A model generated the notes under the pieces. The model was given only the letters and a program-made list of their open reading frames with translations, had not been told where the DNA came from and searched no databases. A stretch of 64,000 bases of DNA from Vulcanimicrobiota bacterium (GTDB taxonomy: Bacteria; Vulcanimicrobiota; Vulcanimicrobiia; Vulcanimicrobiales; Vulcanimicrobiaceae), in NCBI GenBank assembly GCA_963782265.1, contig CAWAJD010000009.1:101-64100 (forward strand), written 5' to 3'. The position numbers and the translations under genes were made by a program. Below are positions 27,148 through 62,944 of the stretch, one piece after another; the stretch's first letter is position 1; every line of letters begins with the position of its first letter.

Positions 27148-28375
27148 TCACCCCAGAACGGGTAGTATCGGGAACGAGCCGGAGAGGATGGGGACCGACG
27201 GGCGGTTGAGCCAGCGTTCGAGGACGGTGGCGTAGACGTTGCGGAAATCGATCGTGTATTTGACGTTGCCGAACGCTTCTTGGCCGATGACGGGGTTATC
27301 GCCGTAGATGCCGCCTTTGACGCCGCCGCCGATCAGGAAGAGCGGTGAGGCTTCGCCGTGGTCGGTGCCTCGGCTGCCGTTCTCGGCGGCACGCGCGGCC
27401 GAACTCGCTGAAGGTCATCGTGAGCACGCGTTTGTCGTTGCCGTGCGCGGCGAGATCCTCGTAGAACGCCGCGATTGCATCGGAGAATTGCTCGACGAGT
27501 TTGTCGTGCGTGGCCTTCTGGCTGACGTGCGTATCGAACGATCCGTGCTCGACGTAGATCACCTTCGTGCCCAGGTTGCTGCCGACGATCTGCGCTGCGA
27601 GTGCGAGCGAACGGCCCAGCGGCGTGGCCGGATAGGCGGCTTGCGTCTTGTAGCCGGAAATCAGCTTCGGCAGTTCTTCCGAGCCGCGCTGCGCGTGATC
27701 TTCGATCTCCATGACGCGCGCGAGATACGGCGACTTGAACGGGACGGTACGGTCGTGGACCAGCGTGGAGAACGCGTTGCGCGTGCCGTTGTTGCCGTTG
27801 ATGGTCAGGCCGTACGTACCGATGCTCGCGATCGCCGGAACGTCGACGTTCTGCGCCGAGAGCGCCTCCGGAACGAGTTGCGAAAGCGCGACGCCGTTGA
27901 ACAAGTTGTTGGCCGGCAGATTCGCCTCATCGAGATAGCGTCCGATCCAACCGCTGTGCAAGTAGCGATCCGGCGCCGCCGTCTGCCAGATTTCCGTCGA
28001 GCGGAAATGCGAGAGGTCGGGGTTGGGATACCCCACGCCTTGAACGATCGCGACGTCGCCTTTATCGTACAGCGCCTTGAACGACTTCATCGCCGGGTTG
28101 AACCCGAGCTGATCGTCGATCGTCAAAACGCTATTGGGAGGCACGGCGAGATTCGGACGCATCTGATAGTACCGCTGGTTGGCGTGGGGAACGACGGTAT
28201 TCAATCCGTCGTTGCCGCCCTGCAGGTTCACGAGAATCAGCACGCGATCGCCGCCGCCCGGCAATCCCGCGAGCGGCGCTTGCGCCAGCGCTTTGGCAAA
28301 GAGATGCTCGGTATTCGCGACGACCGCAAGTCCGGAGACGCTACCGAGTAAGAAGTTGACACGTTTCATCGACAT
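27148..28375 (-). pseudogene. DUF1501 domain protein, one frame break near 27395
   Basis: The N-terminus ends in ...GGNDGLNTVVPHANQRYYQMRPNLAV...GVGYPNPDLSHFRSTEIW...TMTFSEFGR. In another frame it continues ENGSRGTDHGEASPLFLIGGGVKGGIYGDNP...FPILPVLG, with the stop at 27148. Confidence 0.75.
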
Positions 28376-28381
28376 GATTGT

Positions 28382-29860
28382 TTAACTCAGCTGGAAGGCC
28401 GGTGCGGCCATGGCGAGGTAGGCGGCTCCGCTCACGCGTTCGCCATAGTTTTCGGGGCCGAACGAAGCGAGCGCGGCGCTACCCGCGCCACTAAGCAGTG
28501 CGTCGAGTTTCGCGATCGCGGCCGGCGAAGCGTCGCCTTGCAGAATCGTCTCGATCAGCGTCTGCGCGACGGCCTTTGCCTTCATCGGCATCGTGCCCAG
28601 CCAGGAGGAAGCCGTAAGGCTTTGCGAGTTCACGGATGCCTCGAGGAAATTCTGGCGAGCGATCATCATATCGCTGGTGAGCCAATTCGCGCCGCCGGGC
28701 CAGCCGGCGACGTTGGGCGGGTAGAACAGCATCTGCCCCATTTGCTTCAGTTGACGCAAGATCGTAACGTCGAACTGCGGCAGCCCGAGCGCCTTGTAGG
28801 TACCGACGACGAACTCGACTGGTGATTTCACGAGCGCGCGATACGCTCGATCCGAGTAGAACACGTCGCTGCGAAAGATTGCCGACATCACCGGCGCCAG
28901 CTCGAAGTCGTGCTTGCGCAACAAAGCGGCGACGGCGTCGATCAGTTCCGGTTCGGGATCGTTATACACGAAGTTGCTCAGGAGGCTGCCCGCAAAGAAC
29001 CGGGCGCACTGCGGCTGCGCGAAGATGATGTTAACGATATCGTCGCCGTTGAGGTTGCCGGTCTGCCCGAGGAAGGTCTTCACGCCGTCGTCGTGGAGCC
29101 GCGGATTGAAGCTTGCCAGGCCGGTGAAGCGCGAGTACTGCCAGCCGGTCCAGGCACGCGCCGATTCGCGTACGTCGCTCTCCGAGTAGTGGTCGACTCC
29201 GAGCGTATAGAGTTCCATCAGCTCGCGTGCGAAGTTCTCGTTTGGATGCGACGCGACGTTGGCGGCGTTGTCCAAATAGATCAGCATCGCCGGATCCTGC
29301 GAAACGGCGCGCGTAAGTTCGCGAAGATTCCCGAGAGCGTAATTACGGAAGAGTTGATTCTGCTGATAGGTGAGCGTCGGCGCCACGCCCTTTGCCACGG
29401 ACGCCGTCGTAAAGTGACCGTGGAAGTAGAACGCCATCTTTTCTTGGAGCGGCGCGGGCGTAGCGAGCATGCGATTCAGCCACCACACCTGCATCGACAG
29501 AATCGAAACTTGCGTCTCATCGCGCTGGCTCTGAACGAGGCTGACCTTCGTCGCCTTGTCGAGATTCTGGAACTCTCGCGGCGTGTAACGGCCAAAGATG
29601 GTTACCGGATCGAACACGTTGGACGGCGCCGGCAGCGAAGCGGTGGATGGGAAGCGCACGAGCGATTCGACCGCGGCATCGACCGACATACCGGCATAAC
29701 GTTTGATTTCCGCCGCGGATGCGCCGAAGCCGGCGCGGCGCAGAAGATGCGCGGCGCTGCGCTCGTCGAGCGTTCCGTTATAGCGTGCGAGCGGTGCCGC
29801 AGCAAGACTGCCTTGGGGGCGAAAAATGCCGCCTACGTCTACTTGTGTTTGTGCTGACAT
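28382..29860 (-). CDS. DUF1800 domain protein
   Basis: HPNENFARELMELYTLGVDHYSESDVRESARAWTGW, and the usual pairing with DUF1501. Confidence 0.75.
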   Translation of the reverse strand: MSAQTQVDVGGIFRPQGSLAAAPLARYNGTLDERSAAHLLRRAGFGASAAEIKRYAGMSVDAAVESLVRFPSTASLPAPSNVFDPVTIFGRYTPREFQNLDKATKVSLVQSQRDETQVSILSMQVWWLNRMLATPAPLQEKMAFYFHGHFTTASVAKGVAPTLTYQQNQLFRNYALGNLRELTRAVSQDPAMLIYLDNAANVASHPNENFARELMELYTLGVDHYSESDVRESARAWTGWQYSRFTGLASFNPRLHDDGVKTFLGQTGNLNGDDIVNIIFAQPQCARFFAGSLLSNFVYNDPEPELIDAVAALLRKHDFELAPVMSAIFRSDVFYSDRAYRALVKSPVEFVVGTYKALGLPQFDVTILRQLKQMGQMLFYPPNVAGWPGGANWLTSDMMIARQNFLEASVNSQSLTASSWLGTMPMKAKAVAQTLIETILQGDASPAAIAKLDALLSGAGSAALASFGPENYGERVSGAAYLAMAAPAFQLS

Positions 29861-33214: not shown

Positions 33215-36200
33215 CTACGCGCTTTCGGCGGCGCGAACGATGTCCTCGACGGAGGAGCCGGCGCCGCGATGCGCCTCGGCCGAGAACGCTTCGTCGCCGA
33301 GATTCTTGCGGACGGCTTCGAGCAGATCGCGCAGCATCGCCGCTTCGCGCGCTTGACGTGCGACGCCCGGACCGAACGAAACGTCGGCAAACCCGATCAA
33401 GCGGGCCGCCAGCCGATCGTTGCCGGTGCGGTGGTAAAGCTGCGCCATGTATTCGAGCGCGCCCGCCAGCCCAACCCGATCGCCAAGATCCCGCAGCACG
33501 CCGATACCGCGGCGCAGAGCATTGCGTGCCTCGTCGTACCGGCCGCAGGCCAGCAGATAGTAACCGTGATTGGCCCACTGGCGGCCGCCGCTCCAACTCT
33601 CTTCGCCGCGGTCGAAGAGTTCGACGGCTCGTCGGCTCCGGCGCGCGGCTAACTCCGCGTCGCCTAGCAGGAACGCGATGCCGGCCGAGTTGCCGATGAC
33701 GCGGCCGCATCGGTCGGCGTCGCCGCGCGCTTCCAGCAGCGCCGCGGCGCGTTCGAAACACAGCAGCGCTTCCGCCAGCCGTGAATCGTCCAGCAGCTGC
33801 GCGTAGAACACGCCGAGATTGTTGAGCAACTCCGCAGCGCGCAGCGTGCTGCCCAAGTCGAGCATCGTCTCGATGAAGCGCAGCATCTCAGCTTCGAGCG
33901 AAGGATCCAGGTCGCTGACCGTTTCGAGCTCGGTGGCGACGGTGCAGCGCAGCGCGTCGCCGACGTGGATGTCGTCGCCGAGGGCGCGATACAGATCCAG
34001 CGATCGACGCGCCGCCTCGTGCGCGCGCGTCCGATCCGAGCGGCGAACGAGCGCGGCGAGCGCCAAACACATCGGCGCTTCGACCGATGGGCGCAGCGTT
34101 GTTGCCAGAATCGCCGCGATCCGCCGCACCAGATCGGATGCCTGAACGGCGCCGTGCTCCCACAGCCAGTAGTGCAGTGCCCGACAGATCGTGCCGACGC
34201 TGTCGACGTCGCCCGCGTCGATGGCCAGCGAAAGCGCGGCCCGGAAATTCTGGCCGTCCAGCGAGACGAGGCTGCGCCAATGCGTCACCGGGGTCGCTTC
34301 GAGCGTGCCTTCGAAAACGCAGCGCAAGCGTCGTAAAGAAGCGAACGTGCGCGTACGCAGCTGCGTCGAACTCGCCCGACGCGACGAGCAGTCCCTGTGC
34401 GTAGATGCGCGTGATCTCGAGCATGCGGTAGCGCGGTCCCGATGGCGACGACTCTTCGGAGACGAGCGACTTCGAAACGAGATCGGCAAGCGCTTCGCCG
34501 ACGACGGCCTCGTTGAGCTGTTCTTCGTCACCGCAGACGTGCATCGCGGCTTCGAGCGTGCAGCCGCCCGTGAACACCGCAAGCCGCCGGAACAGTTTGC
34601 GCCCGCTCTCGTCGAGCAGGCGATGGCTCCAATCGAGCAGCGCTTCGAGCGTTTGCTGCCGGCTCGGGCCGCCGCGACTGGACATGCCGAGCACCTGCAG
34701 CCGGTCGTCTAGGCGACGCAGCAGTTCTTCCGGCGACATGCTGCGCAGCTGGGGCGCGGCCAGCTCGATGGCCAGGGGAATCGAATCGAGCTGCTGCACG
34801 ATCGCGGCGATAATCGCGCGCCGTTCGTCGCCGAGCCAGATGCCGCCGGCGCGCGCGCGCTCGGTGAAGAGTTCGACTGCGTCTTCGAGCGCGAGCGAGC
34901 CGAGGCGGTGGGTCGTGCCGCCCTTCACGCGCAGCGGCTCGCGCGAGGTGGCGATAACCCGCACTTTTGGCGCCGACGCCGCCAACAAGCGCGCCAGCTC
35001 GGCAGCTTGCGGGATGACGTGTTCGCAGTTGTCCATCACGATCAGCAGACGCTTGTCGCCCAGCGCTGAAACCAAACTCTCGGCGTCGCGCGCGAGCGGC
35101 GCGACGGTTCGCAGCACTTCGCAAGCAAACGGCATGAAGTCGGCTGGATCGTCGAGCATCGCGAGATCCAAGAACCACGTGCCGTCGACGAAGAAGCCGG
35201 CTAGGCGGCGCGCGATCTCAATCGCGATGCGCGTCTTGCCGACACCGCCGGCGCCGGTGATCGTGACGACCGGCGTGCGCTCGAGCGCGTTGCTCAACCG
35301 CGTTACCTCTTCGTGGTGGCCGACGAACCGCGTCGCGCGCGAGGGGATGTTGCCGAGCAGCGAGCGCACGTCGCCGTTTTCCGGCGCGAGCGTGTGCGCG
35401 CCGACGACGCGATTTCGTCCGTCGGCCTTCGCGGCGTACAATGCGGCGTCCGCCGATCCGACGAGCTCGCCGGAGTCGCTCGTATCCTTGGGAACGCAAT
35501 GCGCAACGCCGGCGCTGATCGAGACGCGCCCGATCGACGTACCGCCGTGCGCGATCGCCAGCCGTTCGATCGTGCCGCGCATCGATTCGGCCACGATCAA
35601 GCCGCCTTCCAACCCGGTCTCCGGAAGGAGCGCCACGAACTCTTCACCGCCGTAGCGTCCGAAGAAATCCCCGGGCCGGCGCAAACATGCCGACGCAGCC
35701 GCCGCGATCGAACGCAGACACTGATCGCCGGCGCGATGTCCGTACGAGTCGTTGTAGAGCTTGAATTGATCGATGTCGATCATCACGAGGGTGAGCGAAC
35801 TGCCGTTACGCCGCGCGCGCGACCACTCGCGCGAGAGCGCCAGATCGAACGCGCGGCGATTCGATACCGTCGTGAGTGCGTCGGTGAGCGCGAGCCGCTC
35901 GAGCTGCTCCGTGCGCACGCGGCTCTGCTCGTCGTGCAGGCGCGCGCCGAGATAGACCGCGCAGGTTTCGAGCAGCGATACGTCGTCCGCATCGAGCGGC
36001 CGCGGCGCGCTAACCGAGAGATCGCCGAGTATGAGTCCGGAAAACGCCACCGGCACGCGCGTCGACGGTACGTTCGGGAGCGGCTCGCCGTATTCGTACG
36101 TCCGCGGCTCGCCGCTTTCGACGGTATAACCGATGCGTACGCCGGCCTCGAACGTCTCGGCCAGCAGCGCGCAGAGCTCGTGCAGCACTTCCGTCAAAGC

Positions 36201-36266
36201 CTGCTCGCCCGAAAGCAGCATTGCAATTCGGCGAAGGAGTTCGCGTGCGGCGCGCAGGCGATCCAT
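33215..36266 (-). pseudogene. Multidomain signalling protein: GAF-like N-terminus, GGDEF diguanylate cyclase, STAND/NB-ARC-type P-loop NTPase and TPR-like C-terminus. It is split by one indel in an A4/T4 run at 34314-34317.
   Basis: The I-site RPGD lies 5 residues before the active-site GGEEF. Walker A is TGAGGVGKT and Walker B is LLIVMDNCEH. The C-terminal 450 aa are helical repeats in the neighbouring frame, and removing one T restores ...TLALRFEGTLEATP.... Confidence 0.75.
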
Positions 36267-38664: not shown

Positions 38665-39405
38665 TTAGATCCCAGCGTACCACTCGTAGCCCTGGTCTTC
38701 CCAGTAGCCTCCGCCTCCGCCGTAAATGTTCGCGTAGCTGCCGACCAGTTCGATCCGCCCGACCCATTTCGCGCTCTTGTAACCGAGCTGCGTCGGCACG
38801 CGCAGCCGCACCGGCGCGCCGTGCGCTGCATCCAGCGGCGCGTCGTTGAGGCGCAATGCCAACAGTGCCTGCGGGTGGTTGGCTTGATGAAGGTCCAGGC
38901 TTTCGTAGTAGAGGTGGCCTTGGCCGTCGTTGTCCAAGCAGTGAAACACGACGTACTTCGCATCGGTGCGCGGACTCACGGCGGCCAGCACGTCGGACAA
39001 ACGCACGCCGCTCCACTTGCCGATCGCACTCCAGCCTTCGACGCAATCGTGCCGCGTGATCTGCGTCTGCTCGCCCATATGCTGCAGCTCCGCAAGCGCG
39101 AACGCGCGGCTCCGCTCGACCGCACCGTCGACGACGAGTTTATAGGAACGAAACCCGTCGGTCATCATGCGCACGTACGATTGATCCGTCGGCGGCGAGA
39201 AGCCGTTCACGCGAAAGTTCGCGTCGACGTCGCGATCGTTATACAGGCGCGCCAAACCGCGCGTTCCGATGACCGCATGATCCAAGCCTTCGGCCGATTC
39301 GAGCATACGCCGGAAACCCTGGTTGTTATTCAACGCGGTGCCGATCGGCGAACAACCCGCCAGCGCGGCCGAGATCGACGATGCGAGAAAGAGTTTGCGC
39401 TTCAC
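38665..39405 (-). CDS. Molybdopterin-dependent oxidoreductase, MsrP/YedY-like catalytic subunit
   Basis: ITRHDCVEGWSAIGKWSGVRLSDVL...NDAPL..AHGAPVRLRVPTQLGYKSAKWV. GTGA overlap with the cytochrome b gene. Confidence 0.75.
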   Translation of the reverse strand: MKRKLFLASSISAALAGCSPIGTALNNNQGFRRMLESAEGLDHAVIGTRGLARLYNDRDVDANFRVNGFSPPTDQSYVRMMTDGFRSYKLVVDGAVERSRAFALAELQHMGEQTQITRHDCVEGWSAIGKWSGVRLSDVLAAVSPRTDAKYVVFHCLDNDGQGHLYYESLDLHQANHPQALLALRLNDAPLDAAHGAPVRLRVPTQLGYKSAKWVGRIELVGSYANIYGGGGGYWEDQGYEWYAGI

Positions 39406-40217
39406 GATTCGTGCGAGTCCAGACGGTAGCGGCCGGTAATCATCGAGTTCATTTGATTCATGAAGCCTTGGGTCGCAACTTGGAAGACGTGAACCAGCAT
39501 AAAGGCGATCAACGCGAACATCCCGGCGAAATGCCACAACCGCGCGAACTGCCGACCGCCGAGCAGCCACGTGAGCGGATTGGCAATCGCGTCGATGCCC
39601 GGCGACAACGCTAGACCCGTCAGCACGACGAACGGCGCGAGCACGAAGCCGACGCTCGTGTACGCGGCTTTTTGCAGGGGGTTGTAGATGCCGTGCGGCG
39701 GCGGCTCCTTGCGCAGCTTTAAATAATAAGCCTGCATCGGCCAGAGCTTTGGGATATCGCTCGGCATCAGCAGCATGTCGCGCAAGCTTCCCTTTATTGC
39801 GGTGGAGACGATCCACGCGAGCCAGCACGCCGCCGCAAACCAAGCGAAGAATAGGTGCCAGCGACGGCCGTCGGCGAGGTCTTGGAAGGCCGGTATCGTG
39901 ATCCAGCCGGGGAAGGCGCGCGCGGTCTTGCCGCCCGTCCCGTCGTCGGTCCAACCGAGCCAGCCCGTGGTGTTGAAGTCGTGCCCCAAGATCGTCGTGA
40001 CGCCGGCTCCGTCCTCCGGGGAACCGATGGCCAGCACGCGCCGCGCCGGATTGCTCTTATCGGAGGCGTCGAGCATCGGGGAGGCATTGAAGATCTGCAG
40101 CCCGCTCGAGACCAGAATGCCGAACGCGATCACCCAAAACCAATGGCTTGCCCGCGTGACGAAGCTATAGCGGTTGATGACCTTTGGGGCGGCGGTAGGC
40201 GTGGGCATCTTCCTCAC
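39402..40217 (-). CDS. Cytochrome b561/b-type membrane subunit (MsrQ/PhsC-like)
   Basis: RYSFVTRASHWFWVIAFGILVSSGLQIF, several TM helices with conserved His, and partnership with the Mo enzyme. Confidence 0.65.
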   Translation of the reverse strand: MRKMPTPTAAPKVINRYSFVTRASHWFWVIAFGILVSSGLQIFNASPMLDASDKSNPARRVLAIGSPEDGAGVTTILGHDFNTTGWLGWTDDGTGGKTARAFPGWITIPAFQDLADGRRWHLFFAWFAAACWLAWIVSTAIKGSLRDMLLMPSDIPKLWPMQAYYLKLRKEPPPHGIYNPLQKAAYTSVGFVLAPFVVLTGLALSPGIDAIANPLTWLLGGRQFARLWHFAGMFALIAFMLVHVFQVATQGFMNQMNSMITGRYRLDSHES

Positions 40218-56784: not shown

Positions 56785-57859
56785 GACTCATGCGATCGTC
56801 GTTACGGGCGCCAGTTCCGGCATCGGCCGCGCGCTGGCGCTGGCCGCCGCGCGCGACCGCTTTCGGGTGCTGCTCGTCGCGCGACGTGCCGGCCGCCTTG
56901 AAGAAATCGCGGCCGAGATTCGCGCGAACGGCGGAACGTGCTCGACGCTCGCCGCCGACGTGACCGCTCGCGATGCCCCGCAGCGGATCGTCGCCGCGGC
57001 GATGCAGGCGTTCGGACGAATCGACGTGTTGGTGAACAACGCCGGCGCGGGCGCACTCGGGTATCTGCTCGAGATCGACGACGCCGCAATCGACGCGCAA
57101 TGGCAGCTCCACGTTGCCGCGCCGCTGCGCATCGCTCGCGCCGCACTTCCTCAACTGCGCGAGGCGCACGGACAACTCGTCTTCGTCGGCTCCGGCCTGG
57201 CCCGCGTTCCGATTCCGAACTACGGCGCCTACGCCGCCGCCAAAGCCGCGATCCGCGCCGTCGCAACGCAGCTGCGGCGCGAACTCAAACGCGACGGGAT
57301 CGCCGTCACCTACGTCGACCCAGGCCTCGTCGCAACCGAGTTCCACACCGTGATGGGCACCGAACGCGCAAACGACATCCCGGCCGCCGATCCCGCCAAA
57401 GTCGCCCAAGCCATCATGCGCGGCATCGCCCGCCGCTCCGCCACCGTCTCCGGCGTCCCATGGCAATCTCTCGGCACCGTCATCGGCGAATGGTCCAGCA
57501 CCCTAGCCGACCCCACCCTCATCAAAATGGCCCCCACTGTCATCCTGCGCGTAGCGACCGCAGGGAGCGTAGTCGAAGGACCGCCGCCCGAGCCTCCCAG
57601 CGAAAGGTCGACCTTCGAAGCGGCGCTCGAACCCGTCGCGCGGCGCATGGAACGCGTGAAGCTCACGCCGGAGTTCGTCCGCCAAACCCTCGTTCCGGAT
57701 GCGGACATCGAGTTAAACGAGGTGGCAATGCGTTGGGCGGGAATGCCGAATAAGAACGAGCGGGCGGCGATGCGCGAGGTCTTGGATGCGCTAGCAGCCG
57801 CCGGTTACTTACACCCAACGGGAGATGAAACGTGGAAGGTCCTTCGCGCCGCAGACTAA
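56768..57859 (+). CDS. SDR-family oxidoreductase with a C-terminal extension of about 90 aa. The linker is encoded by repeat copy 4.
   Basis: VVTGASSGIGRA...NNAG...YAAAKAA, then ...APTVILRVATAGSVVEGPPPEPP..., then an unrelated helical domain. Confidence 0.7.
   Translation: MLSTTKTHAIVVTGASSGIGRALALAAARDRFRVLLVARRAGRLEEIAAEIRANGGTCSTLAADVTARDAPQRIVAAAMQAFGRIDVLVNNAGAGALGYLLEIDDAAIDAQWQLHVAAPLRIARAALPQLREAHGQLVFVGSGLARVPIPNYGAYAAAKAAIRAVATQLRRELKRDGIAVTYVDPGLVATEFHTVMGTERANDIPAADPAKVAQAIMRGIARRSATVSGVPWQSLGTVIGEWSSTLADPTLIKMAPTVILRVATAGSVVEGPPPEPPSERSTFEAALEPVARRMERVKLTPEFVRQTLVPDADIELNEVAMRWAGMPNKNERAAMREVLDALAAAGYLHPTGDETWKVLRAAD
57538..57584 (+). repeat. Repeat copy 4, in frame inside the SDR ORF
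   Basis: tgtcatcctgcgcgtagcgaccgcagggagcgtagtcgaaggaccgc shares both ends with copies 1-3. Confidence 0.75.
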
Positions 57860-58698
57860 GCGGCATCCTCGCAACGTGCGCGGCCGTTGCCTCGATCGCC
57901 GCCGTCGCACAAGCTGCGAAAGAGCCGGAGCAGGCCGGCGTCTTCGCGCTCTTTGGCGGCCACCAATCGACCACAGCCGAGTATCGCAGCGATCCCGCCA
58001 ACGGCGGCGGCATCCGCACGCGCGTGCGGCTCTACGAAATGGGCAGCAAAGCGCCGGTCGTCGCGTTCGGTATCTCCAGTGGGCGCTCGATGCAGATGAT
58101 GGTGATCCGGGATGACTTCGCGACCTTTCAACACGTCAATCCGTCGGTCGACGCAACCACCGGAACCTTCCACGAAACGCTGACCAATCTCGACCCGGCG
58201 CATCGCTACTATATGTACGGCGACACGATCCCCGAGAAGGGTACCGAGCAAGTCTTCCGCTTCAACGTACAAGCGGAGCACATCCCCGCGGTGCCGCCCG
58301 CATCCACGCTCGCGGCATCCTCGAAGTCGTTCGCAATCGGCGACTATAACATTCAAGTCGGCGACACGACGATTGCTGCAAACCAGCCTTCGAAACTGCT
58401 GATCGGCGTGCACGAACACGGCAAGATGGCGTGGGATCTCGAGCCCTATATGGGCGGCCCGGGCTACGCGACGATGATCAACACATCGACGCTCGAGTAC
58501 ATCCACCTGAGCTTGTTCCAGCGTGGAAGCTCCAACGAGCAAGCGATCCACGAAGCGGTCAGCGGCACGCCGCAGACGAGCCCATACATCAATGCCGAGC
58601 TCCCCGCACTTCCGAGCGGCACGTACAAACTCTGGGTGCAAGTTCGTGGCCGCGGTGATAAGGTGATGACCGCGCCGTTCACCATCGTCGCGCAGTAG
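57832..58698 (+). CDS. Secreted beta-rich protein with two similar halves (possible Ig-like/metal-binding fold)
   Basis: Signal-like LSGILATCAAVASIAAVAQA. The C-terminus PSGTYKLWVQVRGRGDKVMTAPFTIV resembles the C-terminus of the next ORF. Confidence 0.5.
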   Translation: MEGPSRRRLSGILATCAAVASIAAVAQAAKEPEQAGVFALFGGHQSTTAEYRSDPANGGGIRTRVRLYEMGSKAPVVAFGISSGRSMQMMVIRDDFATFQHVNPSVDATTGTFHETLTNLDPAHRYYMYGDTIPEKGTEQVFRFNVQAEHIPAVPPASTLAASSKSFAIGDYNIQVGDTTIAANQPSKLLIGVHEHGKMAWDLEPYMGGPGYATMINTSTLEYIHLSLFQRGSSNEQAIHEAVSGTPQTSPYINAELPALPSGTYKLWVQVRGRGDKVMTAPFTIVAQ

Positions 58699-58699
58699 C

Positions 58700-59167
58700 A
58701 TGAACCGCTGGGCCAAGAGCGTTTTCCTTATGGGTGCGCTCTTGGCTTGCGTTTCTCACGCGGCAGTTGCCGCCGATCCGCCGAAGACGCAGGTGCAAAA
58801 CGCCGGTCCATACGTGATCACGCTCAACCAATCGAGCATCGATCTCAAGACCGTCGGCGCCGTCACGCTCACGGTACGTAAAGGCGGCAAGCTCGCCACC
58901 GATCTCAAACCCTATGGCGGTTCGTGCGGTCTCGCCGACTTGACCAACACGCAAACCGGACAGACGTATTACACGACGGTCAATCCGGCCGGCACGTCCG
59001 TTTCGACACGAACCGCAACGGATGCGTCGCCGCCGGCGAACTGCGGCGGGGACCTCGAAGTGTCCCCGTCGGCGCAGACTCCGGCCGGCACGTACGCGAT
59101 GAACATTCAACTCGGCGCCCCGGCCGGTCAGATCTACACCACGTCGTTTACGCTCGTAATCCTGTAG
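58700..59167 (+). CDS. Secreted beta-rich protein, single-domain paralog of the previous ORF
   Basis: Signal peptide VFLMGALLACVSHAAVA. C-terminus PAGTYAMNIQLGAPAGQIYTTSFTLV. Confidence 0.5.
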   Translation: MNRWAKSVFLMGALLACVSHAAVAADPPKTQVQNAGPYVITLNQSSIDLKTVGAVTLTVRKGGKLATDLKPYGGSCGLADLTNTQTGQTYYTTVNPAGTSVSTRTATDASPPANCGGDLEVSPSAQTPAGTYAMNIQLGAPAGQIYTTSFTLVIL

Positions 59168-59177
59168 AGCGAAGCCG

Positions 59178-60320
59178 CTACTTCACCGTCGTTACCGGAG
59201 TCGTCCACCAAATCATGTAACGCCATCCGGGGATACTGTTTTGGGCGAAGTAGTTCTCGACGTAGACGTGTAGATACTTAGCGACCTGATAGTTGAAGTC
59301 GATGTTTCCCGTTTGGATTTGATTGCCGAGTCCGTCGTTGGTGAACTCTTTGCGGATCGAGAGCAGCCCCTTGTCCATGATCGGCTGGTAGAGCTCGAGC
59401 GTCGTCGCGGTGCTGGCGGCCTGTCCAAGAGGCATCAGCGATCCATTCGGGAGCGTGTTGTAGCCCGGATTTCCGTCGTGCGCCATTTGGTAGATCACCA
59501 GTATTCCGGGAACGCCTTTGCTCGGATCCCGCTGCACGTACGGTGCGAACGACCAGTACTGATCGGTTCCGCCTTCGGCTAAGGGAGAGGAGCCGCGCGC
59601 CCCGTACACGCCGGCTTCAACGGGTTGCGACTGGTTGGCGTACGCGGCCTTGTACTGGAAGGCTTTATCCGTGTCGTTACCCCAATCGCTCGCCCCGGTC
59701 CATCCCTCGCTGCTGCCCAAGTAGCCGGCCTCGATATCGATGTTGTTCTTGACGTAGTTGAACTTGGTTCCCCAACGATTTGCATCCAACTCGTACGCGT
59801 GTTCTCCGACGACGATTTCCGGCGTGGCGAATCCCGCGAGATCCATCCATTGGCTATACGGTGACGGTCCCGGCGCTTCGAGCAGGCCAACGAAGAGATG
59901 GCCGTCGCGGTGAAGCAGGTTATTGTACGCAACCCAGAACGTGTCCAGATCGCCGGCCTGATTGCCTTGGTAAATCCATTGCTGGAAATGATACGTCACG
60001 TCGTCGCCAATGTAGCCGGTGAGATGAATTTCTACATTCCCGAACTGGGGTCTCGAGCTAGCCAAACTGTCGTAGGTGACCGCTTCGCCGAACCATAGCG
60101 GGAAAGCGCGGCGCAGCACCTTCGGATCGAGTGCGCCGTACCCGGTGCGTTGAACGTAGCGTCCGTACGCGTTGAGCGCCGGCACCTGCGTATGGCAGAC
60201 GCTGCATTTTACGCCGTACGCCTGAGCGAATACCGGCATCGTCTCCGCGCGCTGCGACATCCCCATGGCAAATGCGATCACCACTGCAATCGCAATGAAG
60301 ACCGGAAGCGCGCCTCTCAT
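59178..60320 (-). CDS. Single-CXXCH protein with a predicted beta-barrel body: candidate fused cytochrome-porin
   Basis: N-terminal hydrophobic segment, then YGVKCSVCHTQVPALNAYGRYVQRTGY. The remaining 330 aa or so have no Cys and many alternating strands rich in Y/G/N/D. Confidence 0.5.
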   Translation of the reverse strand: MRGALPVFIAIAVVIAFAMGMSQRAETMPVFAQAYGVKCSVCHTQVPALNAYGRYVQRTGYGALDPKVLRRAFPLWFGEAVTYDSLASSRPQFGNVEIHLTGYIGDDVTYHFQQWIYQGNQAGDLDTFWVAYNNLLHRDGHLFVGLLEAPGPSPYSQWMDLAGFATPEIVVGEHAYELDANRWGTKFNYVKNNIDIEAGYLGSSEGWTGASDWGNDTDKAFQYKAAYANQSQPVEAGVYGARGSSPLAEGGTDQYWSFAPYVQRDPSKGVPGILVIYQMAHDGNPGYNTLPNGSLMPLGQAASTATTLELYQPIMDKGLLSIRKEFTNDGLGNQIQTGNIDFNYQVAKYLHVYVENYFAQNSIPGWRYMIWWTTPVTTVK

Positions 60321-60580
60321 GGCAGCACCATAACGACTGAGAACGCCCCTGCGGCGGCTGCGATCACTAGTGGTCGTATACGGTCGCGCATGGTACGTGG
60401 TTCTCCCAAAAACGAAGCGTGCGCTCAGGCTAGGGCCGCGGCGGGAATCGGCGGAGAAGCGCCCTTCTCAGCTTCTTCTCAATTCGGCCGTTGACTCCCC
60501 GCGCCCCCTTCTCCGGATATTCTTGCCGAATGCCTACGCTTGAGCCCAAGACGCAACCGACGAATTTGGAGGATCTCACG

Positions 60581-60868
60581 ATGACACAACGTTCCAACGG
60601 CATCACGCGTAAAGGCGCGCTCGTGCAACTGCTCGTTCTTCCCGCCCTAGCCGGCGGATTGTTCGTCGGAAGTACCGTTGCCGCTCGGGCCGACAGCCGC
60701 GTCGATCTGAAGTACCAATCGACGCCGAAGGACGGTCAGAAGTGCTCGGACTGCATGCTGTTCGTCCCGGGGAAGACCGCGAAAGATGACGGAACGTGCA
60801 AGGTGATCACCGGCGCAATCAGCCCCAACGGCTGGTGCACAGCGTTCGCGAAGCGCTCTACTACTTAA
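60581..60868 (+). CDS. High-potential iron-sulfur protein (HiPIP)
   Basis: GGAGG lies before ATG, followed by a signal segment. The Cys spacing CSDC-x14-C-x12-C with GWC is as in HiPIPs. Confidence 0.7.
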   Translation: MTQRSNGITRKGALVQLLVLPALAGGLFVGSTVAARADSRVDLKYQSTPKDGQKCSDCMLFVPGKTAKDDGTCKVITGAISPNGWCTAFAKRSTT

Positions 60869-61886
60869 GAGCCGTCACCTGTTGCTCGGTCACGGGACCG
60901 GCGCTATTGCCCCAGGCTGAACGGACGTAGGTCACGACGGCGGCGATGTCCGCGGACGTGAGCTGACCGCTCCAGGAGGGCATCAGGTGGCGACCCTGTT
61001 CGATCGTCGTAATCATGGCGCTGGGATCGGACGCCAGCACGATCTTGTCTCCCGCAAGGGCGGGGATCGTGCGGGTGCCCTGACCGCTCGCCTGATGGCA
61101 TCTCGCGCAGTTTTGCGTGAAAATCGACGCACCGACGGTGGCAAGCACGCCCGGTCCGGCAGCGGCGACCTGTTGCTCGGTTACCCCCGACGCGCCATTG
61201 CCCCAGGCGGAGCGAACGTAGGTAGCGACGGCGGCGATGTCGGCGTTCGAAAGCTGGCCACTCCACGTCGGCATCTTGCCGTTATAGGTTTTGCCGTTTA
61301 CCGTAAGCGGACCGCTGCGGCCGTTGACGATGATTGCGATCATTGCTTTGGGGTCACTCGCGGTCACGACCGGATTGCCTTTCAGCGGCGGTTTTCCCGT
61401 GGTTCCAATGCCGGTCGCGCCGTGACATGTCGCGCACTTCGTTGCGAAGATCTGCGCACCGCTGAGCCCGCTCGGTGCGCTTGCCGCCGCAACTTGATCC
61501 TCGGAAATGATCGGCGCGTTGTTGCCCCACGCCGAGCGGATGTAGCTCAGCACCGACGCGATCTGCGCGTGGGAGAGTTGACCCTTCCACGCCGGCATCA
61601 CGCCCCCGTAGGTTCTTCCACCGACCTGGATCGGGCCGCTGCGGCCGTTGAGCAGCGTATTGATCAGCGCAGCGGTGTCGGCGCCGGTAACGTCCGCGTT
61701 CCCGGCCAGCGGTGGAAACGGGCCGCCGCCAACGCCGGTGGCCTGATGGCACGCCGAGCAGTTGGCTAAGTAGATCGCTTTCCCATCGGGCTGAGCCCCG
61801 GCGATACCCCGATTCGTCGAAAAAATTGCAGAAACGGCGACGAATGCAACGACCAGCAGCAGCGGGAGCGTGGAAGAACGTTTCAT
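60861..61886 (-). CDS. Triheme c-type cytochrome (three class-I cytochrome c domains)
   Basis: A signal peptide is followed by three repeats of about 100 aa. The heme motifs are CSACH, CATCH and CARCH, each with a downstream MP.W (Met ligand) and an IA.V..Y(I/V)RSAWGN motif. Confidence 0.8.
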   Translation of the reverse strand: MKRSSTLPLLLVVAFVAVSAIFSTNRGIAGAQPDGKAIYLANCSACHQATGVGGGPFPPLAGNADVTGADTAALINTLLNGRSGPIQVGGRTYGGVMPAWKGQLSHAQIASVLSYIRSAWGNNAPIISEDQVAAASAPSGLSGAQIFATKCATCHGATGIGTTGKPPLKGNPVVTASDPKAMIAIIVNGRSGPLTVNGKTYNGKMPTWSGQLSNADIAAVATYVRSAWGNGASGVTEQQVAAAGPGVLATVGASIFTQNCARCHQASGQGTRTIPALAGDKIVLASDPSAMITTIEQGRHLMPSWSGQLTSADIAAVVTYVRSAWGNSAGPVTEQQVTALK

Positions 61887-62000
61887 TAAACAGGCCCTCG
61901 ATTGGGCGATACCCTGTTGCGCTGCGTGCCCCCTCCTTCCGTCAGGCCCGTCACCGGTCGGGACGGGTTTAACGGCATCCGAGCGAGGAAAGGTGGAAGC

Positions 62001-62944
62001 GTGGAAGTACGCATTCCCGCCGGCGAGAACGCGGCGACCGTCGAAGCGAACGGCCGCCGAATCGCATTGACTAACCTGAACAAGGTCTATTTCCCGCAAC
62101 TCGGGTTGACGAAGGGCGATCTGCTGCGCTACTACGCTACGATCGCTCCGACGCTCGTGCCCCACGTTGACGAGAAGGCGATCGTGATGAAGCGCTATCC
62201 AACGGCGTAACCGGAGAATACTTCTACATGAAGCGTGCGCCGACGCCGCGCCCCGATTGGGTGCGCACCTGCCCAATCGAGCACGGTTCGGGAAGCGTTA
62301 TCGACTTCGCGCTTGTCGACGACGTGGCATCGCTGCTGTGGCTGATCAACCTCGGCTGCATCGATCTGAATCCATGGTACGCACCGTGCAGCGCTCCCGA
62401 CCGGCCGGAGTACTTGCACTTCGATCTCGATCCGACGCGGGACACGCCGTTTGAAGCGGTCCGCGAGGCCGCTCTCGTCGTCGGCGACGTTCTCCGCGGT
62501 CTCGGCATGACGCCGTTCGTCAAGACCTCCGGCGCCGAAGGAATGCATGTGTACGTCGCCATCCGCAGCGGCCCGTCACAGCGCGAGGTTTGGGAAGTCT
62601 CCAAGGACATCGGCCATGCGATGGCGCGCGCGCATCCGGACTTACTCACCGTCGTGTACCGCGTTGCCGACCGGCCTCCGCGCCGCGTCCTGGTCGACTA
62701 CAACCAAAATGCGTTTGGAAAGACGCTCGCATCCGTCTACTCAGTGCGGCCAAACGAAGCCGCAACCGTTTCGATGCCGGTAACCTGGGACGAAGTACGC
62801 GACGGCTGCGAACCGGGGGACTTCACGCTCCTCAACGTTCCGCAACGCCTGGCCCAGTTTGGCGATCTGTGGAAGCCCTTACTCTTGAAGCGCGGCCGTT
62901 TCGATCTCGCTGCATATCCCCGGCCCGCGCATGCCCGCGTTTGA
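62001..62944 (+). pseudogene. NHEJ polymerase/primase (LigD polymerase domain), one frame break at about 62201
   Basis: RIALTNLNKVYFPQLGLTKGDLLRYYATIAP..., then after the shift YPNGVTGEYFYMKRAP...DLNPW...HFDLDP...FVKTSGAEGMHVY...VLVDYNQNAFGKTLASVYSVRP. Confidence 0.75.

Follow-up and report, generated by a model that had tools for sequence, protein, structure and literature searches.

Does the gene at positions 59178..60320 (minus strand) of a 64,000-nucleotide stretch of Vulcanimicrobiota DNA encode a conduit for electrons across the outer membrane, and between which donor and which carrier would such a protein act? The stretch, called the window throughout, covers positions 101 to 64,100 of contig CAWAJD010000009.1 (GenBank assembly GCA_963782265.1) and belongs to a member of the Vulcanimicrobiaceae. 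An initial annotation, made from the sequence alone, had proposed that the gene product is a fused monohaem cytochrome-porin resembling Cyc2 and Cyt572, and that together with a divergently encoded high-potential iron-sulfur protein (HiPIP) and a trihaem cytochrome c it could form an electron path from the outer membrane to the periplasm. Cyc2 is the main genetic marker for inferring microbial iron oxidation in metagenomes. The analysis described here supports the assignment of the protein, hereafter the porin-cytochrome, to a divergent clade of the Cyc2 family, as judged from the published motif definition and from profile homology. It is very probably a trans-outer-membrane electron conduit of the Cyc2 kind.

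Haem-binding peptide and homology to Cyc2-signature proteins

The open reading frame starts with ATG, encodes 380 amino acids (aa) and has a coding-like codon composition, with a GC content of 0.73 at third vs 0.43 at second codon positions. A short haem-binding peptide, MPVFAQAYGVKCSVCHTQVPALNAYGRYVQRTGY..., is encoded by codons 28-72 (60105..60239, minus strand); it is the best-conserved part of the family and the part that aligns with the Cyc2 signature. As the initial annotation had stated, the protein contains exactly one CXXCH motif for haem c attachment, C39-S-V-C42-H43 (60192..60206, minus strand), which is read directly in the sequence and provides the only two cysteines of the protein. 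With the amino-acid frequencies of the ~60 predicted genes of the window, 7.6e-4 such motifs are expected by chance in 380 aa, and the neighbouring trihaem cytochrome is the only other product among these genes that carries one. To follow the conservation of this site, 45 homologues were aligned. C39, C42, H43, P47, L49, N50, G53, R54, Y55, Q57, R58, G60 and Y61 were invariant, and P47 and L49 form a P-x-L element four residues past the CXXCH (H43-T-Q-V-P47-A-L49). The CXXCH itself was present in 45/45 aligned homologues, in all full-length members and also in distant relatives; a homologous family in which the motif is not conserved, named beforehand as a finding that would speak against the proposal, was thus not encountered. 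Four further residues, H99, H111, H141 and H174, are invariant in this clade only.

Cyc2 has been defined by a signal peptide, one CXXCH, an upstream AXPXFAR[Q/K][T/Y], a P-x-L four residues downstream, a 16-strand porin and a minimum length of 365 aa (Keffer et al., 2021; PMC8406198). With 380 aa the porin-cytochrome lies at the short end of this range. The P, F, A and Y of the upstream signature are kept with their spacing, while Q stands in place of R and A in place of [Q/K]. Taken together, the variant signature and the four clade-specific histidines suggest that the site may be modified.

To place the clade relative to Cyc2, a profile of the family was run against 1.84 billion representative proteins, and 1154 proteins were found. 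The distant full-length matches (E 1e-8 to 1e-15, hmmsearch) bear the published Cyc2 signature, as for instance in AIPAFARKYKLTCNTCHTVFPQLNRFG, following the pattern AIPAFARKY..C..CH...P.LN.FG. For a direct comparison, eleven Cyc2-signature proteins, chosen by motif only, were aligned and used as reference in hhalign. The whole protein matched this reference with a probability of 99.7% (E 8e-27, 346 columns), the haem part alone with an E-value of 5e-24 and the barrel part alone with a probability of 96.4% (E 1.2e-9). Sequence identity to the Cyc2-signature proteins is ~18%, which lies inside the 16-30% range found between accepted Cyc2 clusters. Because CXXCH and P-x-L are invariant, the profile reaches Cyc2-signature proteins and both domains align with them, the initial proposal of a Cyc2-like fused cytochrome-porin with one haem is supported, albeit with a variant signature. 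At the level of sequence, the relation to proteins with the Cyc2 signature is a demonstrable homology that goes beyond an analogy of layout.

General family databases did not recognize the protein. The Pfam scan returned no family at E-values up to 1, the NCBIfam scan yielded no matching model for the porin-cytochrome and no useful one for its canonical-motif relatives, and neither database holds a Cyc2 model. PDB sequence searches with the protein and both profiles gave no solved relative, and a tblastn search against plasmids, aimed at a named validated Cyc2, gave no match. As a separate observation, four proteins from outside the window (P0158, P0172, P0181 and P0187) form a more distant clade with the signature I-P-V/L/I-F-A-N-G/A-Q-G, some members of which extend at the C-terminus into one or two additional cytochrome c domains.

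Predicted signal peptide and barrel domain, and cell envelope

The N-terminus of the protein (MRGALPVFIAIAVVIAFAMG) consists, on inspection of the sequence, of a positively charged n-region followed by a 17-residue hydrophobic core, and residues 4-20 have a mean Kyte-Doolittle hydropathy of 2.6. Codons 1-27 (60240..60320, minus strand) therefore encode a putative Sec-type signal peptide with predicted cleavage after A-E-T27. The small-residue site at -3/-1 reads A-E-T before M28 in the porin-cytochrome and A-x-A before M in >90% of the homologues; A25 and A27 are nearly invariant in the 45-member alignment and directly precede the conserved mature start M-P-P-F-A-Q-A-Y. The export-like N-terminus of the initial annotation was borne out by these features.

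Codons 75-375 (59196..60098, minus strand) encode a predicted 16-stranded beta-barrel (porin) domain. The AlphaFold2 model, calculated with the family alignment, reached a mean predicted local distance difference test score (pLDDT) of 78 and a predicted template modelling (TM) score of 0.76, and DSSP assigned 16 beta strands, all within residues 75-375. The strands are amphipathic, 8-14 residues long and even in number, and they are predicted to form the closed barrel that had been expected of a structure prediction. All eight strand-like stretches (8/8) listed in the initial annotation fall within predicted strands. Residues 21-49 have a pLDDT <50, as expected when the haem is not modelled. 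In a Foldseek search against the PDB, the top matches were the 16-strand porins OmpT, Omp32, PorB and OmpF (E 2e-10, TM 0.5-0.6). Past residue 49 the protein contains 10.9% Gly, 7.6% Tyr, 6.3% Asn, 5.4% Asp and no Cys; the described absence of Cys and enrichment of Gly, Tyr and Asn were thus correct, whereas the Asp content is ordinary.

The initial annotation had tied its proposal to the presence of an outer membrane, and the literature describes the phylum as diderm. Eremiobacterota genomes encode lipopolysaccharide synthesis and BamA (PMC6664022), and thin sections of the only Eremiobacterota isolate display an outer membrane (PMC9758169). An outer-membrane location of the porin-cytochrome is expected in the present organism.

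Redox partners in the window and in related loci

The genes next to the porin-cytochrome gene encode the two redox proteins that had been noted at the outset, and both proved to be real. The HiPIP gene (60581..60868, plus strand) encodes 95 aa from its ATG, within a reading frame open from 60491, with a twin-arginine translocation (Tat)-like T-R-K signal, and matches Pfam PF01355 (1.3e-9). It is divergent from the porin-cytochrome gene and convergent with the gene of a trihaem class-I cytochrome c (60861..61886, minus strand; 341 aa). The latter has an N-terminal signal or anchor, three Cytochrome_CBB3/Cytochrom_C domains and the three motifs CSACH, CATCH and CARCH. The region between the divergent porin-cytochrome and HiPIP genes (60321..60580) presumably contains their promoters, as judged from the gene positions; a simple sigma-70 scan of it gave no consensus promoter. 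The sole NCBIfam match of the HiPIP was the Iro iron-oxidase model NF041615, and the score of 54 bits, under the equivalog cut-off of 100 bits, ruled out an assignment as Iro equivalog.

To analyze whether such partners are a general feature of the family, the gene context was surveyed in the window and in 80 loci of other species (n=81); a species scan, for which each GTDB species was represented by a single genome, had yielded 156 relatives. A periplasmic redox carrier is adjacent or fused to the porin-cytochrome in 77/81 loci and none was found in the remaining 4/81. The proposed electron path to HiPIP and cytochrome c is thus backed by the comparative context. Most often the partner is a small secreted cupredoxin, encoded immediately upstream on the same strand, often with a 4-nt overlap (49/81 loci; an example of the stand-alone form is L005 6546-7001). 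In 4/81 loci the cupredoxin gene lies just downstream, and in 6/81 (L027, L031, L032, L035, L036 and L041) the cupredoxin is fused to the C-terminus of the porin-cytochrome. All adjacent cupredoxins but one carry the CuA ligand pattern C-x3-C-x3-H-x2-M. They are homologous to the soluble CuA domain found in subunit II of ba3 oxidase (E 3e-11), with a complete set of ligands (H...CxxxCxxxHxxM). C-type cytochromes homologous to the trihaem cytochrome of the window are adjacent in 18/81 loci, divergently in 16 of those, and a HiPIP neighbour was found in 3/81. The HiPIP and trihaem cytochrome module also adjoins the homologue in L002/L010 and in L048. Furthermore, 14/80 loci encode a haem-copper oxidase of the ba3-like type, with a small subunit II (COX2, PF09125) and subunit I (COX1), at 1-5 kb from the porin-cytochrome gene, namely L026 1718-3831 (minus strand), L029 97-2415 (minus strand) and 12 further loci.

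Pfam confirmed C-terminal fusions to cupredoxin and to cytochrome c, within this clade as well as in more distant ones. The termini of the porin barrel lie on the periplasmic side (Keffer et al., topology; PMC8406198), and in the C-terminal fusions the redox partner therefore sits at this side of the barrel.

The type of partner tracks the subclade. In the cluster of the window protein (n=40), 38 members are accompanied by a cupredoxin, and the window protein is the sole member with a cytochrome and a HiPIP and without a cupredoxin. The slot between LigD and the porin-cytochrome gene is occupied by a cupredoxin in the closest relative and by the HiPIP and trihaem cytochrome in the window, where a search for a cupredoxin remnant found none. 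The window locus is thus a swap of the partner cassette with respect to its closest relative.

Proposed mechanism and alternative explanations

A working model that links these features is as follows. The Sec signal peptide would be removed on export, the N-terminal peptide of ~45 residues would gain one covalent haem c in the periplasm, and the remaining ~300 residues would fold as a 16-stranded outer-membrane barrel. Both termini would then be periplasmic, and the haem peptide would lie at, or within, the barrel mouth on that side. A small dissolved donor, most likely Fe2+, may enter the pore from outside and reduce the haem, which would pass the electron to the high-potential periplasmic carrier encoded next door. 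Here this carrier may be the HiPIP and/or the trihaem cytochrome c, and in most relatives it would be a secreted or C-terminally fused CuA cupredoxin. From there the electron may reach a terminal oxidase or, in phototrophic relatives, conceivably a reaction centre. The layout of the protein, its conserved haem site, its homology to Cyc2-signature proteins and its linkage to redox genes are established here, whereas its location in this organism, the direction in which electrons move, the donor and the sequence of carriers are inferred. As a whole, this assembly of a Cyc2-superfamily outer-membrane protein that passes electrons from a dissolved donor to a carrier is probable. The identity of Fe(II) as the physiological substrate, taken on its own, is a tentative assignment, with the chances for and against it nearly balanced.

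Several observations weigh against the model. The strict Cyc2 signature is missing, since the porin-cytochrome reads T-M-P-V-F-A-Q-A-Y and the family consensus A-M-P-P-F-A-Q-A-Y. The strict published filter, PXFAR[Q/K][T/Y], was passed by 0/120 of the closest relatives, 97/120 of which carry FAQAY, and by 102/118 matches of a canonical-motif profile search; as the clade fails this filter, it would have been dropped when the published tree was built. AlphaFold2 places the haem peptide without confidence. The protein ends in ...WWTTPVTTVK and thus lacks the aromatic residue that proteobacterial outer-membrane proteins typically have at the C-terminus, while ...SF is the ending of its canonical-motif relatives. 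Relatives mostly have a CuA cupredoxin, and not a HiPIP, as partner, and the 64-kb window contains no gene for an oxidase, for cytochrome c maturation or for BamA. Finally, Cyc2 homologues are known in many organisms that do not oxidize iron (PMC8406198), and the family is found almost throughout a phylum with a single isolate, which has been described as an aerobic photoheterotroph, with iron oxidation unreported (PMC9758169).

The last two points also feed the main rival explanation, in which the same haem conduit serves another role. It might accept electrons from other soluble redox species, such as Mn2+, Cu+, reduced humics or quinones or reduced sulfur, or it might carry electrons outwards for Fe(III) reduction at low pH or for electron disposal. 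Such a role would fit a family whose members are spread over Eremiobacterota of peat, soil and Antarctic desert, with two copies in several genomes, and the unreported iron oxidation of the isolate. It would also accommodate the variant signature and the invariant H99, H111, H141 and H174, and according to textbook redox chemistry the high-potential carriers are thermodynamically compatible with Fe(III) reduction at acid pH. On the other hand, all biochemically tested members of the wider family oxidize Fe(II) (PMC8406198), and Eremiobacterota bloom in Fe-rich acid tailings (PMC13594681). Moreover, the O2-reducing oxidase near the gene in 14 loci, together with the HiPIP, CuA and class-I cytochrome partners, fits electron uptake into an aerobic chain. 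We consider a different role of the conduit unlikely, at roughly one chance in a handful.

Far less likely is an ordinary diffusion or substrate-specific porin, in which the CXXCH peptide would have a structural role or be a vestige and would not transfer electrons. General porins are indeed the top structural matches, and some Cyc2-signature relatives score on the phosphate porin model PF07396. However, the haem peptide is the best-conserved part of the protein, its CXXCH is invariant in all full-length members, redox proteins are linked or fused in 77/81 loci and the porin-cytochrome itself has no porin Pfam match. Equally improbable is a periplasmic or inner-membrane-anchored beta-rich cytochrome with the N-terminal hydrophobic segment as an uncleaved anchor, which the absence of the usual aromatic beta-signal residue would allow, but which is opposed by the 16 amphipathic strands with their even count and porin-like TM-scores, by the conserved A-x-A directly before the conserved mature N-terminus and by the diderm envelope of the phylum.

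Comparison with known electron-transfer systems

The porin-cytochrome is closest in kind to Cyc2 of Acidithiobacillus ferrooxidans and Mariprofundus ferrooxydans PV-1 (clusters 1-3 in PMC8406198). Both proceed from a signal peptide to a monohaem peptide and a 16-strand barrel, carry the CXXCH followed by P-x-L and, with identical spacing, an upstream A-x-P-x-F-A-x-x-Y, are homologous in both domains and are encoded near periplasmic high-potential carriers. They differ in the upstream signature (FAQAY vs FAR[Q/K][T/Y]), in length (380 aa vs mostly at least 400 aa) and at the C-terminus, where Cyc2 has a terminal aromatic residue and the porin-cytochrome ends in ...TTVK. Further differences are the four invariant histidines of the present clade, its host phylum Eremiobacterota and its usual partner, a cupredoxin with a binuclear CuA centre that is sometimes fused; an activity like that of Cyc2 is proposed here from the sequence.

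Cyt572 of Leptospirillum, which belongs to Cyc2 cluster 2 and was set beside the porin-cytochrome by its description, is likewise a monohaem cytochrome of the outer membrane and a member of this superfamily. It hands its electrons to a periplasmic cytochrome. It differs in its source, an extreme acidophile, and in its unusual haem spectrum. The gene neighbourhood resembles that of the rus operon of A. ferrooxidans (Cyc2 to rusticyanin to Cyc1 to aa3) and the Iro HiPIP of A. ferrivorans, as a cytochrome-porin is encoded together with a cupredoxin and/or HiPIP and c-type cytochromes. However, the cupredoxin of the relatives is of the CuA type whereas rusticyanin is of type 1, and the gene order is variable in the clade.

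In MtoAB, PioAB and MtrAB, electrons also cross the outer membrane through a barrel, but there a 26-strand barrel cooperates with a separate decahaem cytochrome (PMC8406198). With 16 strands and one haem on a single polypeptide, the porin-cytochrome does not belong to complexes of this type. With the general and phosphate porins OmpF, OmpT, Omp32, PorB and OprO/OprP it shares the 16-strand barrel fold only, as these porins have neither a haem peptide nor a redox gene context and it matches no porin sequence family.

Distribution and significance

A search of 5.8 billion proteins yielded 653 homologues, nearly all of which belong to Eremiobacterota. The best 120 of these are at least 52% identical to the porin-cytochrome, and all named ones among them are from Candidatus Eremiobacterota (Baltobacteraceae, Vulcanimicrobiaceae, Tumulicola, Tyrphobacter and Meridianibacter). 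Of the best 80 of the 156 relatives in the species scan, 70 carry Eremiobacterota/Vulcanimicrobiota titles, 8 have uninformative ones ('bacterium', 'uncultured bacterium') and 2 are labelled Acidobacteriota. The closest relative is 86% identical and lies on a 4.54-Mb chromosome (OY969808.1) that is syntenic with the window at 80-85% DNA identity, so that the window stems from a closely related member of the Eremiobacterota. The gene was found in most scanned Eremiobacterota species genomes, and its products are annotated as 'hypothetical protein' everywhere. The two Acidobacteriota-labelled occurrences (L008 and L078) are in metagenome-assembled genomes (MAGs) named Candidatus Acidiferrales and Acidoferrum, which suggests that contigs were mis-binned or that the gene was transferred horizontally.

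Cyc2-like genes in Eremiobacterota MAGs are already known. One was detected by BLAST in a MAG from acid mine drainage (PMC8357290), and Baltobacteraceae MAGs that dominate Cu/Ni tailings have been predicted to be iron oxidizers (PMC13594681). The literature search found no paper on the variant signature or on the linkage or fusion to a CuA cupredoxin. The porin-cytochrome is therefore a divergent, unannotated variant with an unusual wiring to its partner, and not a new kind of system.

Eremiobacterota might possess a Cyc2 branch of their own that is firmly coupled to a CuA cupredoxin, either secreted or fused. In this scenario some lineages, including the present one, would have swapped to HiPIP and trihaem cytochrome c, and some clusters would sit beside a ba3-like oxidase. 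That such a branch is functional, with cryptic iron oxidation and a soluble CuA shuttle as its consequence, is possible but on present evidence less than probable. If the protein is a working Fe(II) oxidase or another electron-uptake device, Eremiobacterota of peat, soil, tailings and Antarctic sites would be cryptic iron oxidizers, phototrophic ones would be potential photoferrotrophs, and a widespread, often dominant phylum of soil and peat would join the iron cycle. The cupredoxin, fused in some species, would then provide a new wiring from the outer membrane to the periplasm in which a binuclear CuA protein acts as a soluble periplasmic electron shuttle. Such a shuttle would be unusual; to our knowledge, this role has not been described for CuA centres. 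The natural fusions and the partner swap in the window give direct, testable predictions of the electron recipient.

Other genes of the window

Two adjacent genes for secreted proteins of 288 and 155 aa (57832-58698 and 58700-59167, both plus strand) end close to the porin-cytochrome gene. The proteins are weakly paralogous (E 1e-7) and have no Pfam or NCBIfam match, and in the closest relative their genes lie 9.2 kb further off. As they are gene neighbours in none of the 80 other loci, the two proteins (57832-59167) were rejected as parts of the system. On the other side of the redox genes, the LigD primase-polymerase is split over two frames, 61902-62210 and 62228-62944 (both plus strand), which cover positions 1-32 and 42-254 of PF21686. 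LigD of the closest relative is intact (314 aa), and the split in the window marks either a pseudogene with a frameshift or an error in the sequencing.

Further away, an adjoining DUF1501/DUF1800 gene pair (27296-29860, minus strand) has no assigned function, and in a 792-aa protein (33888-36266, minus strand) a GGDEF diguanylate cyclase domain is joined to an NB-ARC (STAND NTPase) domain. A membrane protein of the cytochrome b561 family (Ni_hydr_CYTB) is encoded at 39402-40217 (minus strand), ~19 kb from the porin-cytochrome gene.

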